Of a stretch of DNA of 64,000 nucleotides, positions 21,862 through 27,997 are shown one piece after another. Under the pieces are notes generated by a model. The model made no database searches. It was given only the letters and a program-made list of their open reading frames with translations, and was not told the DNA's origin. The DNA comes from an uncultured Desulfobulbaceae bacterium (GTDB lineage Bacteria > Desulfobacterota > Dissulfuribacteria > Dissulfuribacterales > DYLC01), in contig CAYRSX010000038.1 in NCBI GenBank assembly GCA_964427245.1, positions 2,495-66,494 of the forward strand, in the 5' to 3' direction. Each line of letters begins with the position of its first letter. Within the stretch, counting starts at the first letter, position 1. Both the position numbers and the translations under genes were made by a program.

Positions 21862-22254
21862 TTACGAGGCTTTGCGTCTGACGTGAACACGCTCCACGAT
21901 CTTTCGATAATAGACCTGGTTTGTCTCCAGAGAGACCTTGGTGCGGCGCATTAGATTCATTTTTGTTATGAGCAGATTGAGTTTGTTGATCTGCCGGTAG
22001 CGTTCTTCCTCTGTAGTAAGGTGTTTTATCATGTCCATGGTGGTGTGAATCTCTTTGGCTGTCTCCAGCTCAGGAGGTAAATAACCGGCGTTTTTGAGAA
22101 TCTTGTAGGCCATACGCAGGTCAGGCGGCACAAAGGAATCGTCTTCGTATTCAAGGGGACGTCCCTTTCCCTGTAGATTGTCGAAATCTCCGCGTTCCAT
22201 AGCCTCTTGGATGCGTTTCTCCGCAATGTATTCCAAAAAATTCAAGTTACTCAT
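21862..22254 (-). CDS. DUF1992 (DnaJ-C28-like) domain protein
   Basis: IAEKRIQEAMERGDFDNLQGKGRPL..DD matches the DUF1992 signature. I chose the ATG at 22254 (MSNLNFLEY...) to avoid overlapping the upstream kinase gene. Confidence 0.65.
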   Translation of the reverse strand: MSNLNFLEYIAEKRIQEAMERGDFDNLQGKGRPLEYEDDSFVPPDLRMAYKILKNAGYLPPELETAKEIHTTMDMIKHLTTEEERYRQINKLNLLITKMNLMRRTKVSLETNQVYYRKIVERVHVRRKAS

Positions 22255-22286
22255 AAAATGAATTATGAAGTTTGGTTGTGCTGCTG

Positions 22287-23645
22287 TCAAGGCAGCATGC
22301 TGTCTTTTACTTGTCCTTGCGTTTTTTCCTTCCATCTCACAGGGAATGTGCAGATTACGCAGGTGCCTTTGTTTGGTTCACTTTCAATGGAGATATTTCC
22401 CTGATGTTCTTCCAATATCTCTTTGACCAAAAAAAGTCCGAGTCCTGTGCCCCCTGGTTTGGTGGTGATGGGTGTTGTAAAGAGTTTTTCTTTTATTTCC
22501 GGCGGAATGCCCTGGCCTTTGTCACAGATAATGACAGAAGGCCTTCCATCCTGACGCAGTAGTTTGATTTGAATGGTACTGTGTGCAGGTGATGCCTCCA
22601 GCGCATTTCTGAGAATATGAATAAATGCGGTTTTCAGAACGCGTTTGTTGGCCATGATCCCCAGGGGTTCCTGTGAAATATCTATCGCAAGCTTTATATC
22701 TTTTTTGGCCAGTCCGGGTTGCCATGTATTCACAACCTCTGTGATGATGTTTTTGAGGTTCTCTTTTGTAAAAGAACGAATCTCCTTTGCGGTCAACTCC
22801 TCGAAGTTCTTCACGAAATCAGAGAGTTCCTTCATGGCCTTTTGAATTATTGCAAGTTTTTGACGGGTGTTTTCAGTTAATGTGGAGTCCTTTTCCAGGA
22901 TAGTGGAGATGAGCCCGCCTGTCACCATCACAGGGTTTCGAATACGGTCCGCTATGCGTAGCGCCATCTGTATGGTGGTGTGTTCTCTGGCCATCGCCTC
23001 CATGTCCTGACTCAGTTGTAGAAGTTCTAAATTCATTCGGTCCAGCTGGTGGTTTTGCAGACTGGTCTGCTCCAGCAGCCGCAGCACCTCTGCGTGTTTG
23101 AGGCGTAGATTTTCCAGGTAGGATTCTTCTGTGTTTTTAAAGAGTTCATTTCTGAAGGAAGCCTCTTTTTTTTGTATTTCGTCCCACGACTTTTGAATGC
23201 CCCATTTGACCGCACTGATTTCAATAGGGGTGTCAATTGTGCCGCCGGTTATGCTGACCTCGTCCAGTACCTTTTTAAGGCCATGAATTACAGGTGTTTT
23301 GTTTAAGGCTGCCTTGTCGGCAGGACATGTGTCGCCATTCAGATTGGTTGCATCGCAGGGTCTTTTGCTTTGGAAGAGGAGTTCTATGCCGCTCTGTTCG
23401 AGTATTTCCTTCATATTGTTTTTTGGAGCTTTCTTGCAGCAGAGAATGCTCATCGTGACTGTTCCGGTTCTGGCCATGCGCATCATCCAGCGAGTCATCT
23501 CGGATGCAGATACAGCTACCTGCGTGGTGGCTATACGGTTCAACCCGCAGATATGACATAGGAGTTTGCTCTTCATGCGCACCTTAGGGATATCTTCCTG
23601 TCTTTTAATCACCAGGGTCAGAATATGCAGTCGGTTCATGTCCAT
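22287..23645 (-). CDS. histidine-kinase-like protein with an intact HATPase_c domain but Asp at the H-box position
   Basis: N-box HILRNALEA, G1 DKGQGIP and G2 GGTGLGL are all present. The DHp-like helix reads ALRIADRIRNPVMVTGG, so Asp233 sits where HE.RNP kinases have His. The N-terminal region of about 120 aa is Cys-rich. Confidence 0.7.
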   Translation of the reverse strand: MDMNRLHILTLVIKRQEDIPKVRMKSKLLCHICGLNRIATTQVAVSASEMTRWMMRMARTGTVTMSILCCKKAPKNNMKEILEQSGIELLFQSKRPCDATNLNGDTCPADKAALNKTPVIHGLKKVLDEVSITGGTIDTPIEISAVKWGIQKSWDEIQKKEASFRNELFKNTEESYLENLRLKHAEVLRLLEQTSLQNHQLDRMNLELLQLSQDMEAMAREHTTIQMALRIADRIRNPVMVTGGLISTILEKDSTLTENTRQKLAIIQKAMKELSDFVKNFEELTAKEIRSFTKENLKNIITEVVNTWQPGLAKKDIKLAIDISQEPLGIMANKRVLKTAFIHILRNALEASPAHSTIQIKLLRQDGRPSVIICDKGQGIPPEIKEKLFTTPITTKPGGTGLGLFLVKEILEEHQGNISIESEPNKGTCVICTFPVRWKEKTQGQVKDSMLP

Positions 23646-24790
23646 CTCACCACCACCAGTGAGGAGTCGTCCTGAGGCGTATTTTTGGGCTGAAACAGAA
23701 TCTGTGCCCAGATAGCGGCGGATGTGTGGCTTGACAGATAACCCGTCAGGTCCGGTGAGTGAAGTACGCCGTCTGAGTGCATTACGATGAGCAGGTCTTC
23801 TGCAATGTCATTGACGGAAGCCATTTGAATGATATTCTTGCTTGAGTTTGTGTGAATATTGCCTACAAGCCCTGGCCGAGGGCTGATATTGTGGCCCTTA
23901 CCGGCAGAATAGACTGTGCATACTGCGTTTCTCAGGCCTGCAGCTAATATCTTTTTTTTCCTGTAATCTATGAATAGCACCTGCATGGATGCCCCGTTGG
24001 AACCGAACAATGCCCCATTCAGGGCATTGATGACTCGATCTGGTTCGTGACTTACCGGCAGGTCTTCCAATAACTGCACTGCGTCACGGGCTATTATGGC
24101 AGCGGTTTCTCCATGACCCGTGACGTCTATGAGGGCGATGCGGCAGAAAGAGCCGTCGTCTTGAAGAGATACCGCGTCTCCTGATTGCGTCTGACCCGGA
24201 CATGGCCGGATAATGGCCGAGACATGAAGCGGCTGCCTTTCTTTAGGTTTATTAAATATATCGGCAGGTTGTTCCTCGATTGTGGCGGAGACTATCGTGG
24301 CATAATTTTTATAAGTGAGTGGGCGAGGGCATGGAGAAACGCCGAATTGCATGGAACAGATATGAAACCGGCTCGACAGACGTTTCACTGTTCCAAGGCC
24401 TATTCCCAGGCCTCCAGAGGTGCTGAAACCATCTTCCATGGCTTTTTCTACATTGGGGATGCCGGGTCCTTCATCAAGGCTCGCTATGGTTATGACAGGA
24501 ATGCGGTTCAGGGACATGCCGCTTATGCGTATCAGGCCGTTTTGAGTGGCATGCGCCAGGTGGTTCTGGGCCAGTTCGCTGGCTACGAGGACTGCTTCCT
24601 GTCTGCGGGCGGAGGAGACAAAAAGTTGTTCAGCTGCTATGCCTGCTAGCTGTCTGGCGATGGCCACATCCTTGGGTGTGCTTACAGAAAGTTCAGACCA
24701 TACGAAAGGCAGGCCGTTTTTAATCTGCTGCCCTTCGTGATTTTCAAAGGTGTTAGCTGCACTCATTTTGTCTGTTGTGAAGTTTGTCAT
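23636..24790 (-). CDS. fused RsbW-like ATP-binding domain plus PP2C/SpoIIE phosphatase (RsbX/RsbU-like)
   Basis: N-terminal part: LVASELAQN...DEGPGIP...GGLGIGLG (HATPase_c_2). C-terminal part: SGDAV...IDVTGHGETAA...MHSDGV (PP2C). The ATG at 24790 makes an ATGA overlap with the rsbT-like stop. Confidence 0.75.
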   Translation of the reverse strand: MTNFTTDKMSAANTFENHEGQQIKNGLPFVWSELSVSTPKDVAIARQLAGIAAEQLFVSSARRQEAVLVASELAQNHLAHATQNGLIRISGMSLNRIPVITIASLDEGPGIPNVEKAMEDGFSTSGGLGIGLGTVKRLSSRFHICSMQFGVSPCPRPLTYKNYATIVSATIEEQPADIFNKPKERQPLHVSAIIRPCPGQTQSGDAVSLQDDGSFCRIALIDVTGHGETAAIIARDAVQLLEDLPVSHEPDRVINALNGALFGSNGASMQVLFIDYRKKKILAAGLRNAVCTVYSAGKGHNISPRPGLVGNIHTNSSKNIIQMASVNDIAEDLLIVMHSDGVLHSPDLTGYLSSHTSAAIWAQILFQPKNTPQDDSSLVVVRWT

Positions 24791-25215
24791 GGCGATAGCC
24801 ACTTTATGACCTCGACTCGTGTGCCGTGTGGAAGCAGATTGTTAATTTGCACCTGATCCGAGAGATTGGTGATGCCCGAAAGCCCCAGGCCAAGGCCGTT
24901 GTCTTCAGAAAATCCCGGTTGAACGGCCTTTTTGATGTTGTTTATGTCAGGGCCTGAGTCGGTTGCCACTATCCTGAAACCTATCCGTCCTTCCTGTGTC
25001 AGCACCTCCATACAGATTTCGCCTCTGTCGGCGTGTCTCAGAATGTTTTTGCCCAGTTCGTTTATGATGGTCAGCAGTTCAGTTGCCGGCTGTTTTCGAA
25101 TATGAAGGGCGTTAAAAAGGGTCCGGGCCTTTGTCCTGATCTTGCTGAGGCTGTTTGCAGGAGTGACAGCTGCGCATATGTGCTGGTGTGTTGTGGGCCC
25201 TGAAGTGCTGTTCAT
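24787..25215 (-). CDS. rsbT: RsbT-like serine kinase / anti-sigma regulatory factor
   Basis: ELLTIINELGKNILRHADRGEI...ATDSGPDI...GLGLGLSGI is a small HATPase_c_2 protein lying directly after rsbS. Confidence 0.75.
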   Translation of the reverse strand: MNSTSGPTTHQHICAAVTPANSLSKIRTKARTLFNALHIRKQPATELLTIINELGKNILRHADRGEICMEVLTQEGRIGFRIVATDSGPDINNIKKAVQPGFSEDNGLGLGLSGITNLSDQVQINNLLPHGTRVEVIKWLSP

Positions 25216-25565
25216 CGCAATCTCAAAAGCGCCTGCTCCATATCTAGGGCAAACTCTACATTTTTGAGCTGAATGTTGAAGTCTGTCAGAGTGAGGGCGA
25301 CCGGCACCTGAATGCCTGCCACCACGACTCGTGACCTCAGCATGTGCAAAAAAGAGACGAGCCTTTCGATGTGTTCGGCAAGAAAGGTATCCATGGCCTC
25401 CACTTCGTGCATGTCTATAATCACCGCCTTGGCCTTGGTTTTTGAGACTTGCTTGCCAAGGCGCTGAAGAAGGCGTTCTATGCTCGAATCATCGATTTCT
25501 TCTTGAATAGATACCAGCAGAATGTCTTCGAGGGAGAAGATGGAAAATGGCTCCATGTCGTTCAA
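25212..25565 (-). CDS. rsbS: RsbS-like single STAS domain protein
   Basis: A 117-aa STAS fold (ILLVSIQEEIDDSSIERLLQRL...AVIIDMHEVEAMDTFLAEHI...) that is translationally coupled on both sides. Confidence 0.75.
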   Translation of the reverse strand: MNDMEPFSIFSLEDILLVSIQEEIDDSSIERLLQRLGKQVSKTKAKAVIIDMHEVEAMDTFLAEHIERLVSFLHMLRSRVVVAGIQVPVALTLTDFNIQLKNVEFALDMEQALLRLR

Positions 25566-26437
25566 TCCTGCTGAACACCCTCGTTTTTGATTATATTCAT
25601 GGCCGCCTTTCTTTTCTGTATCTCCAGGAGGGCCAGATAGAGGGCATCGCTCATTCGGCTGCGCACGGTGATGGTTGTCATATTTACGCCAAGATGTGCC
25701 ATGGTCAGGGCGATGTGCGGTGAGATGCCTGTGAGAATGGCCTCGCTTCCCATGAGTCTCGTGGCATCAACGGTCTGTAGAAGCCGGCTGGCAACCTCAG
25801 TATCCACTGTGGGAACGCCGGTGATATCGATGATGACGAACGGGGCACGAGTCTTTTCTATGGTTTCCAGCAGGCGTTCCATGGCCATGCGTGCCCTGTG
25901 ACTGTCCAGGGTCCCTATGAGTGGTAGGGCCAGAACGCCTTCCCAGAGCTCTATGACAGGCGTGGAGAGTTCGAGCACCTCGTTTTGCAGATGGCGGATA
26001 TTTTCTTCCTGTTTGCGCAGGAGCTCTTCCTGTTGTCTTTGAATCAGTTGTTCCTGTTCAAGGCGTTTAGAGATGTCAACGAAGTGTTCCACACACCCAA
26101 CGATGCGGCCTTCGTGGTTTTTGAGGGGTCTGGCTGCATATTCTATGGGGATTTCTTTGCCATTATACTTAAGAACCGTCTGTCCATGGCAAACTTCATC
26201 TGTTTCTGTAGCGAGGAGACAGGCACATTTTTCTGTGCCGCACATGCTTGTATTGAAGATCTCACTACATTTTTGGTCAAAGCACTCTCCAGGCGTTTTG
26301 CCGACTATGGAAGAGGCGCCCTTGTTTATGAGCAGGATGTTGTGTTCCTTATCGGTGACAAAGATGCCGGAAGGCACAGCGTTTATGATCTCGAACAGAA
26401 AGCCTTCATTGTTTTTGTAATCACTGATGGTTTCCAT
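25562..26437 (-). CDS. rsbR: RsbR-like stressosome sensor: Cys-rich PAS domain plus C-terminal STAS domain
   Basis: The C-terminus STPVIELWEGVLALPLIGTLDSHRARMAMERLLETI...FVIIDITGVPTVDTEVA...ILTGISPHIA is RsbR-type STAS. The N-terminal PAS domain has Cys at positions 52, 57, 66, 71, 73 and 83. Confidence 0.8.
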   Translation of the reverse strand: METISDYKNNEGFLFEIINAVPSGIFVTDKEHNILLINKGASSIVGKTPGECFDQKCSEIFNTSMCGTEKCACLLATETDEVCHGQTVLKYNGKEIPIEYAARPLKNHEGRIVGCVEHFVDISKRLEQEQLIQRQQEELLRKQEENIRHLQNEVLELSTPVIELWEGVLALPLIGTLDSHRARMAMERLLETIEKTRAPFVIIDITGVPTVDTEVASRLLQTVDATRLMGSEAILTGISPHIALTMAHLGVNMTTITVRSRMSDALYLALLEIQKRKAAMNIIKNEGVQQD

Positions 26438-26518
26438 GGCAGTCTCTCCTTAAGTCGATATATGGTATGCGGCAGCGTGCCTCCACAATGGGTGTAAAGG
26501 AGGGTAGTACAAAATATA

Positions 26519-27202
26519 TTATGCCGGTATTCCAATGGATAATTTTTGAGCATCCATGTGCAATATCCAGCCTGTTTCCACGGTTTTTACTGAAAGATAT
26601 TTCTTCAGAATGGAGGCCGGATAGACGGTTTCAAAGGCCTGTTGAGTTGAATCTGTTTGTTGTTCTTCCGTAAACGGTGAGCCGTTTTGGCTGAATGTTA
26701 TGGAATATGCCGCAGGATTGTCTGTGATCGCACAATTTATTTCAAAATCGCATGGTGTTTTGTGCCGCAGGCCTTCTATGCTCAAGGCTATGCAGCCTCC
26801 GATGATTCCGCGTGCCGTCGCTTCTTGGGCTATGGTAAAGACCTGTTTCTGAAATAGGTTAATCGTTTTGTTGACTTTGTGTTTGAAAAATAGATCCGCA
26901 TTCCAGAAGGCTAGTTCTTGTTCTATCATGTCATTCAGAACTATCGGCTGGACTTGAGTATTATTTGTGTTGGCATGATTTACCATGCATTGTATTTGTT
27001 TTTCAAGTCTTTTTATGTTCGCTTGCAGATTGTCGATTTGCTGCTGGTTGATTGATTTTATTTTATCTATCAATTCCGTCTGCATGGAAATTATCTGCAA
27101 TGGTCCATTCAGATTATGTACAAGACCCTTGAGCAGCATAGCTGTAAGTTGTGCGGGGAGATTGTTGAAAAGATATAGACATTCCTCATTGGTTAGATTC
27201 AT
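26519..27202 (-). CDS. DHp/H-box-containing kinase-like protein lacking recognisable ATP-binding boxes
   Basis: It has the H-box-like KGLVHNLNGPLQIISMQTELI (His29) followed by a coiled coil. The C-terminal half has no clear N, G1 or G2 box. Confidence 0.55.
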   Translation of the reverse strand: MNLTNEECLYLFNNLPAQLTAMLLKGLVHNLNGPLQIISMQTELIDKIKSINQQQIDNLQANIKRLEKQIQCMVNHANTNNTQVQPIVLNDMIEQELAFWNADLFFKHKVNKTINLFQKQVFTIAQEATARGIIGGCIALSIEGLRHKTPCDFEINCAITDNPAAYSITFSQNGSPFTEEQQTDSTQQAFETVYPASILKKYLSVKTVETGWILHMDAQKLSIGIPA

Positions 27203-27219
27203 AACCGGCCTTTACAAGA

Positions 27220-27858
27220 TTATATTTTAGCAAACAGTTTCTGTTTCATGAGATTGAATTCGTCGAGAGATATCAGACCTTTTTCGTAAAGATTACTCAG
27301 TCGTTCCAAGTGTGTCAGGGAATCGTTTCCGCTTTGTGTCTGTGCATAATAGGCCGACGGTGGTATGTCCGTTGGATAGAGGAAGATGGGCTGGCTGAGC
27401 TGGGCCGATCGTTCTGTCTGTCTCAGGTTGTCCAGCTCTTCAAGCCGCTTTAAGAGCGCTCGGTTTTCTTTGAGCAAAAGGATTCTTTCGCAGGCATTTT
27501 GCACACTGATCTCTACTTCATCCAGCCGAAAGGGTTTGCGGATATAATCGTAGGCCCCCTGATGAATGGCCTCTATGGCGGTGTCGAGAGAGGCATAGCC
27601 TGTCATGATGATGATCATGATTTCTGAATAAAGTTCCTTGGCTTTTTTCATTACCTCTGTGCCGCTTGCACCGGGCATAATAAGATCGGTTATGAGTAGG
27701 TCGTATGAGTGTGCCTGAAGCGCGGATATGGCATCAAGTCCATTATATACGACTGTTATTTGCCTTTCGGGCCTGCTAAGGTCGTTAGCGAGCAGATCCC
27801 CGACAGCTTTTTCATCCTCTGCAACAAGAATGCTGATAGAGGGGCGGTCATCTGTCAT
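27220..27858 (-). CDS. response regulator receiver domain with a C-terminal SHOCT-like tail
   Basis: ILVAEDE...LLITDLIMPG...IIIMTGYAS...DYIRKPF is a REC domain. The C-terminal LERLSNLYEKGLISLDEFNLMKQKL resembles SHOCT. Confidence 0.8.
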   Translation of the reverse strand: MTDDRPSISILVAEDEKAVGDLLANDLSRPERQITVVYNGLDAISALQAHSYDLLITDLIMPGASGTEVMKKAKELYSEIMIIIMTGYASLDTAIEAIHQGAYDYIRKPFRLDEVEISVQNACERILLLKENRALLKRLEELDNLRQTERSAQLSQPIFLYPTDIPPSAYYAQTQSGNDSLTHLERLSNLYEKGLISLDEFNLMKQKLFAKI

Positions 27859-27969: not shown

Positions 27970-27997
27970 GTAGGGGCGCACGGCCGTGCGCCCCTAC
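27970..27997. repeat. perfect 28-nt palindrome (repeat module M3)
   Basis: GTAGGGGCGCACGGCCGTGCGCCCCTAC is its own reverse complement. A degenerate copy lies at about 31902..31929. Confidence 0.9.

Follow-up and report, generated by a model that had tools for sequence, protein, structure and literature searches.

How stressosomes pass on their signal in the many bacteria without sigma-B is a question that the field recognizes as open. In sigma-B-less RSTX modules, most of the downstream proteins have no RsbU_N domain, and an interaction between RsbT and the downstream protein D1 was not detected (Heinz et al. 2022, PMC9237108). In the Vibrio locus, RsbR contains a globin domain, RsbX has PP2C as its sole domain, and the two downstream proteins are a PAS hybrid kinase (D1) and a protein related to cyclic di-GMP (c-di-GMP) (D2) (PMC9237108). 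A stressosome with a GGDEF output in Moorella thermoacetica and histidine kinases headed by RsbU_N are also on record (Quin 2012 and Heinz 2022, as cited in PMC12143880). The coupling device in the described non-sigma stressosomes is RsbU_N or else is unexplained, and the locus that we describe here differs in that its putative output carries an RsbT-like head. This locus lies on the minus strand of a stretch of 64,000 nucleotides (nt), hereafter the window, from contig CAYRSX010000038.1 of an uncultured Desulfobulbaceae bacterium (assembly GCA_964427245.1). It consists of eight genes between window positions 21,862 and 27,858 (Table 1): a REC-SHOCT response regulator (g1), a protein shaped like a histidine kinase (g2), RsbR, RsbS, RsbT, a fusion of a kinase head with a PP2C phosphatase (g6), a histidine-less transmitter (g7), and a DUF1992 protein (g8). 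We favor, with a probability of roughly 0.45, a model in which this is a stressosome without a sigma branch, whose output, g7, acts on a receiver domain via its RsbT-like head.

Pfam and NCBIfam scans of the eight proteins uphold all the domain assignments of a preliminary description of this DNA (STAS, HATPase_c_2, SpoIIE, HisKA, and SHOCT), with HisKA being a weak match and the SHOCT match of g1 falling just below the cut-off. The RsbR-RsbS-RsbT genes and their phosphatase are confirmed as a stressosome-type module, in agreement with the same description, by the domain calls, by matches to solved stressosomes in the PDB, and by the phospho-sites; a large pseudo-icosahedral RsbR/RsbS complex that sequesters RsbT is a prediction from the genes. 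The best PDB matches of RsbR are the RsbR proteins of the Listeria, Bacillus, and Vibrio stressosomes (E ~1e-25, with RsbS chains at 6e-13), and those of RsbS are RsbS chains (6jhk, 6qcm, and 7o0i), so that RsbS is closer to RsbS than to RsbR. RsbT, in which the N-box and the G2 box are conserved, yields only weak SpoIIAB matches in the PDB (E ~0.007). The residues T213 and T245 of RsbR, both Thr here, are equivalents of the phospho-acceptors T171 and T205, and Thr60 of RsbS occupies the position equivalent to Ser59 of B. subtilis, where all 59 of the 59 orthologues have Ser or Thr. Six cysteines of the RsbR PAS domain (C52, C57, C66, C71, C73, and C115) are kept in 56-57 of 57 orthologues, from which we infer an input of a redox, metal, or Fe-S type.

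The phosphatase gene g6 had been taken for a fusion of an RsbW-like domain with PP2C. The fusion with PP2C stands, but the head is a paralogue of RsbT, as indicated by a profile-profile comparison with the RsbT family (hhalign, 99.2% probability, E 6e-20). The N, G1, and G2 boxes of the head and the four metal-binding Asp motifs of the PP2C domain are conserved in 50-54 of 54 orthologues, and the PP2C aspartates themselves (D205, D222, D340, and D374/375) in 52-54 of the 54. Judging by these signatures, g6 combines an active-looking RsbT-paralogue kinase head with an RsbX-type PP2C phosphatase.

The assembly (2.02 Mb, 99.5% complete), which the records of its relatives place in the order Dissulfuribacterales, encodes two STAS proteins, RsbR and RsbS, a single SpoIIE-type PP2C, which is g6, and three Sigma70_r2 proteins, two of which are FliA and RpoH (NCBIfam) and the third is RpoD-like by sequence alone. 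Thus, none of the three sigma-70 family genes of the genome is of the SigB, SigF, or SigG type; the genome-wide STAS search found no RsbV-type single-STAS anti-anti-sigma factor; and no match to the RsbU_N docking domain at E 0.01 or better is present in the eight operon proteins. The lack of a sigma-B cascade, originally noted for the operon, therefore extends to the entire genome. Because the genome has no RsbV or second phosphatase substrate, the kinase and the phosphatase of the operon would act only on RsbR and RsbS.

The block of genes conserved beyond the genus is RsbR-RsbS-(RsbT)-g6-g7, which spans Dissulfuribacterales and Desulfobulbia. Full-length orthologues of g7 occur in about 36 of the 69 genomes of the order, at 39-60% identity, and in Desulfobulbia, at 32-36% identity, and RsbR-RsbS lie upstream of full-length g7 in all 55 loci but one (L099). 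Among cultured relatives, Dissulfurimicrobium hydrothermale and Dissulfurirhabdus thermomarina possess the core. The block comes in several grades: a separate RsbT is present in 23 loci, RsbS is followed directly by g6 in 31 loci, and minimal loci consist of RsbR-RsbS-g7. The phospho-sites covary with this kinase content. All 23 loci with a separate RsbT have Thr at the two RsbR sites, and 22 of these 23 have Thr in RsbS, whereas loci without RsbT mostly carry Ala or Ser, and Val or Ile, at the RsbR sites and Ser at the RsbS site. Given that the loci are phylogenetically clustered, this covariation is suggestive and does not amount to statistical proof. The Ser/Thr site of RsbS is retained even in the RsbR-RsbS-g7 loci that have neither RsbT nor g6.

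A natural fusion connects the two ends of the block. In the sister genus G401, a protein of about 393 residues (L142:2313-3509) joins an RsbR-type Cys-PAS domain (CFDRKC...C.T..C.C) to the coiled coil of g7, an Asp-type dimerization and histidine phosphotransfer (DHp) domain (ADLFKNP), and a catalytic and ATP-binding (CA) domain. The protein comes without STAS, RsbS, RsbT, or PP2C, and the scaffold is absent in G401. In this natural fusion, the sensor is linked directly to the output, and the stressosome scaffold is bypassed. From the constant adjacency, the minimal RsbR-RsbS-g7 loci, the G401 fusion, and the covariation between phospho-sites and kinase, we infer that g7 is the output of the stressosome.

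The preliminary description had correctly identified g7 as a kinase-like protein with a HATPase_c domain but had missed its head (approximately residues 1-150), in which residues 11-149 match the whole of RsbT (hhalign, 97% probability, E 1e-10, 126 columns). In this head, an invariant Arg (Arg52) replaces the N-box Asn and the DxGxG motif is absent, so that the head is a pseudokinase. A coiled coil joins it to the C-terminal half, a standard DHp-CA core by both sequence and predicted fold. The profile matches of g7 are ThkA, ZraS, and KinB, and the Foldseek matches of its AlphaFold2 model (pLDDT 76.8) are histidine kinase cores, those of DivL and RetS among them; this search with the whole model was dominated by the kinase core, so that no match of the head to a solved structure emerged.

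The decisive feature of g7 is its H-box, which reads A-D-R-I-R-N-P here (consensus A-D-[RKQ]-[IV]-R-N-P), whereas its nearest paralogue within the genome reads A-H-E-I-R-N-P, the canonical form. Asp233, at the position of the phospho-acceptor His, does not vary among 19 sequences with identities as low as 32%, the +1 residue is always R, K, or Q, and the Asn at +4 (N237) is invariant. In HisKA proteins, an acidic +1 residue is needed for activity as a kinase and a Thr or Asn at +4 for activity as a phosphatase (Willett and Kirby, PMC3510030). Autophosphorylation in the classical manner is therefore not open to g7, in which Asp takes the place of the His and a basic residue that of the acidic one at +1. 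Given that g7 keeps the phosphatase-linked Asn but not the kinase-linked acidic residue, it would most likely bind or dephosphorylate a receiver domain rather than phosphorylate one. The N, G1, and G2 ATP-binding boxes are present here and in most orthologues but are lost in the minimal-type orthologues, which keep the motif ADRI[RL]NP; the conserved function of g7 thus resides in the DHp helix and not in ATP chemistry.

The same boxes could be read differently, namely, as those of a GHKL protein kinase that acts on a non-His substrate (a Ser or Thr in RsbS, RsbR, or some other protein, compare the mitochondrial PDK-type kinases), or that forms an acyl-phosphate on Asp233 which is then passed on. 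Apart from the conservation of the boxes in most orthologues, the invariance of Asp233 is compatible with such a role, as is the RsbS Ser/Thr site kept in the loci that have g7 but neither RsbT nor g6. However, it is precisely in those loci that g7 has lost its ATP boxes and therefore cannot be the STAS kinase, and no precedent for Asp phosphorylation on a DHp domain was found in the literature searched; we consider this explanation very unlikely.

The Asp-type transmitter is not confined to stressosome loci. In a profile search against a library of 1.84 billion representative proteins, full-length g7 accounts for about 20-25 of the best 150 matching clusters, and an Asp-type H-box of the form A-D-x-[IV]-R-[NT]-P is found in about 75 of these 150, behind REC, PAS, and other inputs. 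Also among the best 150 matches are proteins with a canonical His core and an Asp core in tandem (P0048, P0049, P0051, and P0054) and a few RsbT-headed proteins with a true His. In Nitrospirota (L136-L138), proteins of the REC-DHp(D)-CA type are encoded beside large canonical kinases. A limited literature search, which is not proof of absence, found no description of an Asp-for-His HisKA class, of RsbT-headed outputs or kinases, or of an RsbX fused to a kinase head. Two general rules can be formulated from these patterns: that RsbT-derived heads tether both the reset phosphatase and the output enzyme to the STAS core in sigma-B-less stressosomes, and that the A-D-[RKQ]-[IV]-R-N-P transmitter is a distinct and widespread class of effectors that bind or dephosphorylate receivers, behind RsbT-like, REC, PAS, and even canonical kinase inputs. 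We put these rules forward tentatively, as it is doubtful that both of them hold.

Other two-component genes adjoin the conserved block in particular lineages. The end of g7 in Desulfobulbaceae (L114:8277-9368, L116, L118, L121, L124, L132, and L133) overlaps with the gene of a canonical histidine kinase (LTHDLKAP), and the PAS domain of this kinase contains a Cys cluster (SSLCGEHCPLRES...C) reminiscent of the PAS cysteines of RsbR. Just upstream of RsbR, on the same strand, many Dissulfuribacterales encode a PilS-like kinase (6TM_PilS-PAS-HisKA) together with a response regulator of the sigma-54 activator type (L067:13446-16662, L069:2571-5610, and similar loci).

Histidine kinase cores that act by binding a receiver or another kinase have a precedent (PMC4211667), and g7 could accordingly be a modulator of the RetS kind, with its Asp-type DHp domain forming a heterodimer with a His-bearing DHp protein, either a canonical kinase or g2, and switching this partner on or off without any chemistry of its own. 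Candidate partners would be the Cys-PAS kinase of Desulfobulbaceae, the PilS/PilR-like pair of Dissulfuribacterales, and g2, which lies upstream in the genus of the window; RetS and DivL are among the fold matches, and the minimal g7 orthologues are complete pseudokinases. Yet the His-bearing neighbor varies from lineage to lineage, with some loci having none, and the retained +4 Asn and RNP motif suggest that the contact is made with a receiver and not with a second DHp domain. Such a modulator is therefore unlikely, and we retain binding or dephosphorylation of a receiver as the preferred action of g7.

The model that we build on the domain identities, conservation, covariation, and natural fusion described above is conjectural as to how g7 docks, whether it acts as a phosphatase or a binder, and which target it has. 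RsbR and RsbS would form the STAS scaffold, with the Cys-rich PAS domain of RsbR sensing a signal of a redox, metal, or Fe-S type. Three RsbT-type heads, namely, RsbT itself, the head of g6, and the dead head of g7, would compete for this scaffold; RsbT and the g6 head would phosphorylate it, and the PP2C domain of g6 would reset it. Depending on the signal and the phosphorylation state, the g7 head would dock on, or leave, the same STAS surface, and its capture or release, transmitted through the coiled coil, would shift the dimeric DHp-CA core between conformations for the binding or the dephosphorylation of a receiver. In the genus of the window, the target would most likely be the REC-SHOCT protein together with g2, a putative phosphotransferase, which are encoded in what is predicted to be the same transcription unit and whose HD-GYP partner has been lost; this assignment is the weakest link of the model.

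The layout of the locus is as previously described: the open reading frames and the sequence bear out eight minus-strand genes, including the two larger gaps between g2 and RsbR (81 nt) and between g7 and g8 (32 nt). Only 17 nt separate g1 from g2. Overlaps of 4 nt (TTGA or ATGA) link RsbR to RsbS, RsbS to RsbT, and RsbT to g6, with ATGA on both sides of RsbT, and g6 and g7 overlap by 10 nt. Scanning the minus strand for consensus sites turned up no terminator-like sequence within the cluster ahead of g8. A perfect GC-rich palindrome of 28 nt (27970-27997) is located in the intergenic region that separates the REC-SHOCT gene from the divergent mgtA.

Table 1. Genes of the stressosome-type locus, with positions in the window and best domain matches.
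Gene	Product	Positions	Strand	Domain matches (E value)
g1	REC-SHOCT response regulator	27220..27858	-	Pfam Response_reg 3.4e-23, SHOCT 2.2e-5
g2	H-box protein, shaped like a histidine kinase, without ATP-binding boxes	26519..27202	-	weak Pfam HisKA 1.6e-4
RsbR	PAS + STAS	25562..26437	-	Pfam PAS_4 1e-15, STAS 5e-13
RsbS	single STAS	25212..25565	-	Pfam STAS 1.8e-11
RsbT	GHKL Ser/Thr switch kinase	24787..25215	-	Pfam HATPase_c_2 2.4e-9
g6	RsbT-type head + RsbX-type PP2C	23636..24790	-	Pfam HATPase_c_2 4e-6, SpoIIE 3.5e-7
g7	RsbT-like head, coiled coil, HisKA-like DHp, CA	22287..23645	-	Pfam HATPase_c 2.4e-22, weak HisKA
g8	DJC28_CD / DUF1992	21862..22254	-	Pfam DJC28_CD 2.7e-27

The putative target of g7 includes the product of g1, a single-domain REC protein with the phospho-acceptor Asp in the context ITDLIMPG, a helical linker, and a SHOCT tail. 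Its partner, g2, has no Pfam or NCBIfam match beyond weak ones to HisKA or an AtoS-type DHp, and no HATPase match. Nevertheless, its AlphaFold2 model (pLDDT 83.8, pTM 0.80) has the full shape of a histidine kinase core, with a CA-like domain devoid of ATP boxes, and Foldseek matches it to HK853, DivL, and RetS, with the phosphotransferase ChpT (4qpk) at rank 50. Within the g2 family, His29 and the motif FW..DLFFKH are invariant, and the His is followed by an invariant Asn at +1 and by Gly or Ser at +4, so that g2 lacks both the kinase and the phosphatase determinants. The phosphotransferases ChpT, Spo0B, and PhyT shuttle phosphate between receivers, and PhyT works with a single-domain regulator (PMC3433190, PMC5898713, PMC5964349). 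As far as the predicted model goes, g2 resembles histidine phosphotransferases of this type, in the sense that it would work like them rather than belong to their family, and the gene context, with REC-SHOCT and REC-GAF-HD-GYP genes flanking g2 homologues in other genera, supports a putative reversible phosphotransfer by g2 between two receivers.

The phyletic pattern of g2 differs from that of g7. The g2 family is present in a single copy in 64 of the 69 genomes of the order, at least 25 of which have no g7, and outside the family of the window it belongs to a unit of three genes, REC-SHOCT / REC-GAF-HD-GYP / g2. Thus, g1 and g2 are a separate, order-wide relay module that adjoins the core only in the genus of the window, where the pair lies directly upstream of RsbR (as also in L001, L002, and L084); in the sister genus G401, it stands alone. 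The HD-GYP gene between g1 and g2 has been lost in the family of the window: the genome contains no orthologue of REC-GAF-HD-GYP but only distant HD-GYP paralogues (best E 9e-42, compared with 8e-168 for true orthologues). In one genome (G383), the REC-SHOCT / REC-GAF-HD-GYP / g2-like module is located directly downstream of flaG (L044:6600-9609), an adjacency that hints at a role of the g1-g2 relay in motility or c-di-GMP signaling. In the genome of Dissulfurimicrobium hydrothermale (G106), the REC-SHOCT orthologue appears to be split into two overlapping open reading frames of 100 and 165 amino acids (L140:10397-11160), possibly because of a frameshift or a sequencing error.

This distribution bears on the proposal, made in the preliminary description, that the locus encodes a split kinase. 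Under such a scheme, the CA domain of g7 would phosphorylate His29 of g2 in a g2/g7 hetero-complex, and phosphorylated g2 would then pass the phosphoryl group to the REC-SHOCT protein. The defects of the two proteins are indeed complementary, g7 retaining the ATP boxes without the His and g2 the His without the boxes, both have the fold of a histidine kinase core, and in this genus both belong to one operon. Against this, many genomes encode g2 without g7, as noted above; outside this genus, g2 lies between or beside REC proteins at another locus, and g7 never adjoins g2 in at least 50 loci. The catalytic residues are equally discordant, as g2 has an invariant Asn next to the His in place of the acidic residue that kinase chemistry requires (PMC3510030), and the minimal g7 orthologues without ATP boxes still keep the Asp motif. 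We therefore reject the split kinase on both phyletic pattern and catalytic residues and regard it as quite improbable.

A more serious alternative is that the five-gene core signals to an unlinked target, with the REC-SHOCT/g2 pair and the DUF1992 gene being functionally unrelated units that rearrangement of a compact, small genome has brought next to it. Synteny within the genus extends over the entire cluster and its flanks (mgtA, an FmdE-like gene, enolase, and pyruvate kinase), and this equal conservation of plainly flanking genes, the restriction of the adjacency of g1, g2, and g8 with the core to one genus, the solitary g1-g2 pair of G401, and the promoter-like site before g8 all agree with this scenario. 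It accounts less well for the shared strand, the lack of a terminator-like site, and the short gaps (17 and 81 nt here, the latter, between g2 and RsbR, being 28 nt in L001 and 49 nt in L002, both from the same genus), or for the loss of the HD-GYP partner in this family, which leaves the relay without its usual output. We consider such chance proximity possible but improbable. Of the eight-gene operon originally proposed as a unit, the conservation of a cluster in relatives holds true, but beyond the genus it comprises only RsbR-RsbS-(RsbT)-g6-g7, whereas g1, g2, and g8 adjoin it in the genus alone. As for g8, we reject it as a member of the system: it follows g7 only in the genus of the window and has a promoter-like site of its own (TTGACA-17-CATAAT at 22290-22262, 11 of 12 matches), which spans the stop codon of g7 directly upstream of g8 and from which the DUF1992 gene may be transcribed on its own.

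Several observations weigh against the model of a stressosome that signals through g7 to a receiver. The g1-g2 pair is universal in the order irrespective of g7, so that its adjacency to the core here may be incidental, and across 55 loci no receiver gene is consistently linked to g7 within 7 kb. RsbT of the window has the G1 box DSGPD (G90D; codon 90 at 24946-24948) instead of the DxGxG found in 24 of 25 orthologues, including those of relatives from the same genus; the substitution is identical in contigs from four metagenome runs, i.e., it is fixed, and may weaken ATP binding in this population. The docking of the g7 head on the STAS scaffold is predicted from its homology to RsbT only. The runs found to carry the stretch are DNA metagenomes (hot spring and microbial mat), with no RNA run among them. 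Finally, most g7 orthologues retain all the ATP boxes, for which a pure phosphatase or binder has no obvious need. Nucleotide-stimulated phosphatase activity does occur in HisKA kinases, for instance, in EnvZ.

If correct, the model offers a testable answer to the question of how stressosomes signal in sigma-B-less bacteria, namely, that the output carries its own RsbT paralogue and may itself sit on the STAS scaffold. Evolution has provided natural experiments in the form of loci with and without RsbT that show matching changes in the RsbR sites, three-gene minimal versions, and the fusion in the sister genus that bypasses the scaffold. Furthermore, the locus brings to light a fairly large group of proteins that look like histidine kinases but have an invariant Asp where the phospho-acceptor would be. 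Because the organisms are thermophilic anaerobes that disproportionate sulfur, the Cys-rich PAS domain may report on redox, metal, or sulfur status.

Like ChpT, Spo0B, and PhyT, g2 combines the shape of a dimeric histidine kinase and a conserved His with a CA-like domain lacking ATP boxes, and its gene neighbors one for a single-domain REC protein, joined in other genera by that of a second protein with a REC domain and an output domain. Unlike them, it does not belong to their sequence families, has the FW..DLFFKH motif and a SHOCT-tailed REC partner, and the terminal regulator of the relay is a REC-GAF-HD-GYP protein, which is missing in this genus. The transmitter g7, in turn, resembles the repurposed, non-phosphorylating proteins DivL of Caulobacter, which has Tyr for His, and RetS of Pseudomonas, both of which are among its fold matches, in having a histidine kinase core fold with a non-canonical residue at the phospho-acceptor position. 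It differs from both in the Asp with a basic +1 residue, in the input through an RsbT-like head, and in the genomic context, with the Asp class being known here from genes alone.

The proteins of the B. subtilis and L. monocytogenes stressosomes are the best solved relatives of the core, which shares with them the order of the genes for RsbR (sensor and STAS), RsbS, RsbT, and a PP2C reset phosphatase, as well as all three phospho-sites. By contrast, the operon described here has no RsbU_N, and its genome has neither an RsbV/RsbW pair nor a SigB-type factor; instead, there is a Cys-rich PAS sensor, a phosphatase with an RsbT-type head of its own, such that, unlike in RsbX of the B. subtilis type, the PP2C domain is fused to a kinase head, and an RsbT-headed, His-less output. 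Comparable in organization are the rsbRSTX-D1-D2 locus of Vibrio vulnificus and other sigma-B-less RSTX modules, in which RST and PP2C are likewise found beside two-component-type proteins without a sigma cascade (PMC9237108, and Pane-Farre 2005 as cited there). The earlier statement that RsbRST modules with alternative outputs, the Vibrio system included, are known in outline agrees with that study and with PMC12143880. Here, however, sensing falls to a PAS domain, both the PP2C and the output have RsbT paralogues of their own, Asp replaces His in the output, and, unlike the case of D2 of Vibrio, none of the eight proteins of the operon contains a GGDEF, EAL, or HD-GYP domain (Pfam). Finally, as in Moorella and in the kinases headed by RsbU_N, a stressosome appears to have been adapted to serve a non-sigma output from its own operon, but whereas those outputs take up RsbT via the four-helix head of RsbU_N, here the head of the output is itself RsbT-like.

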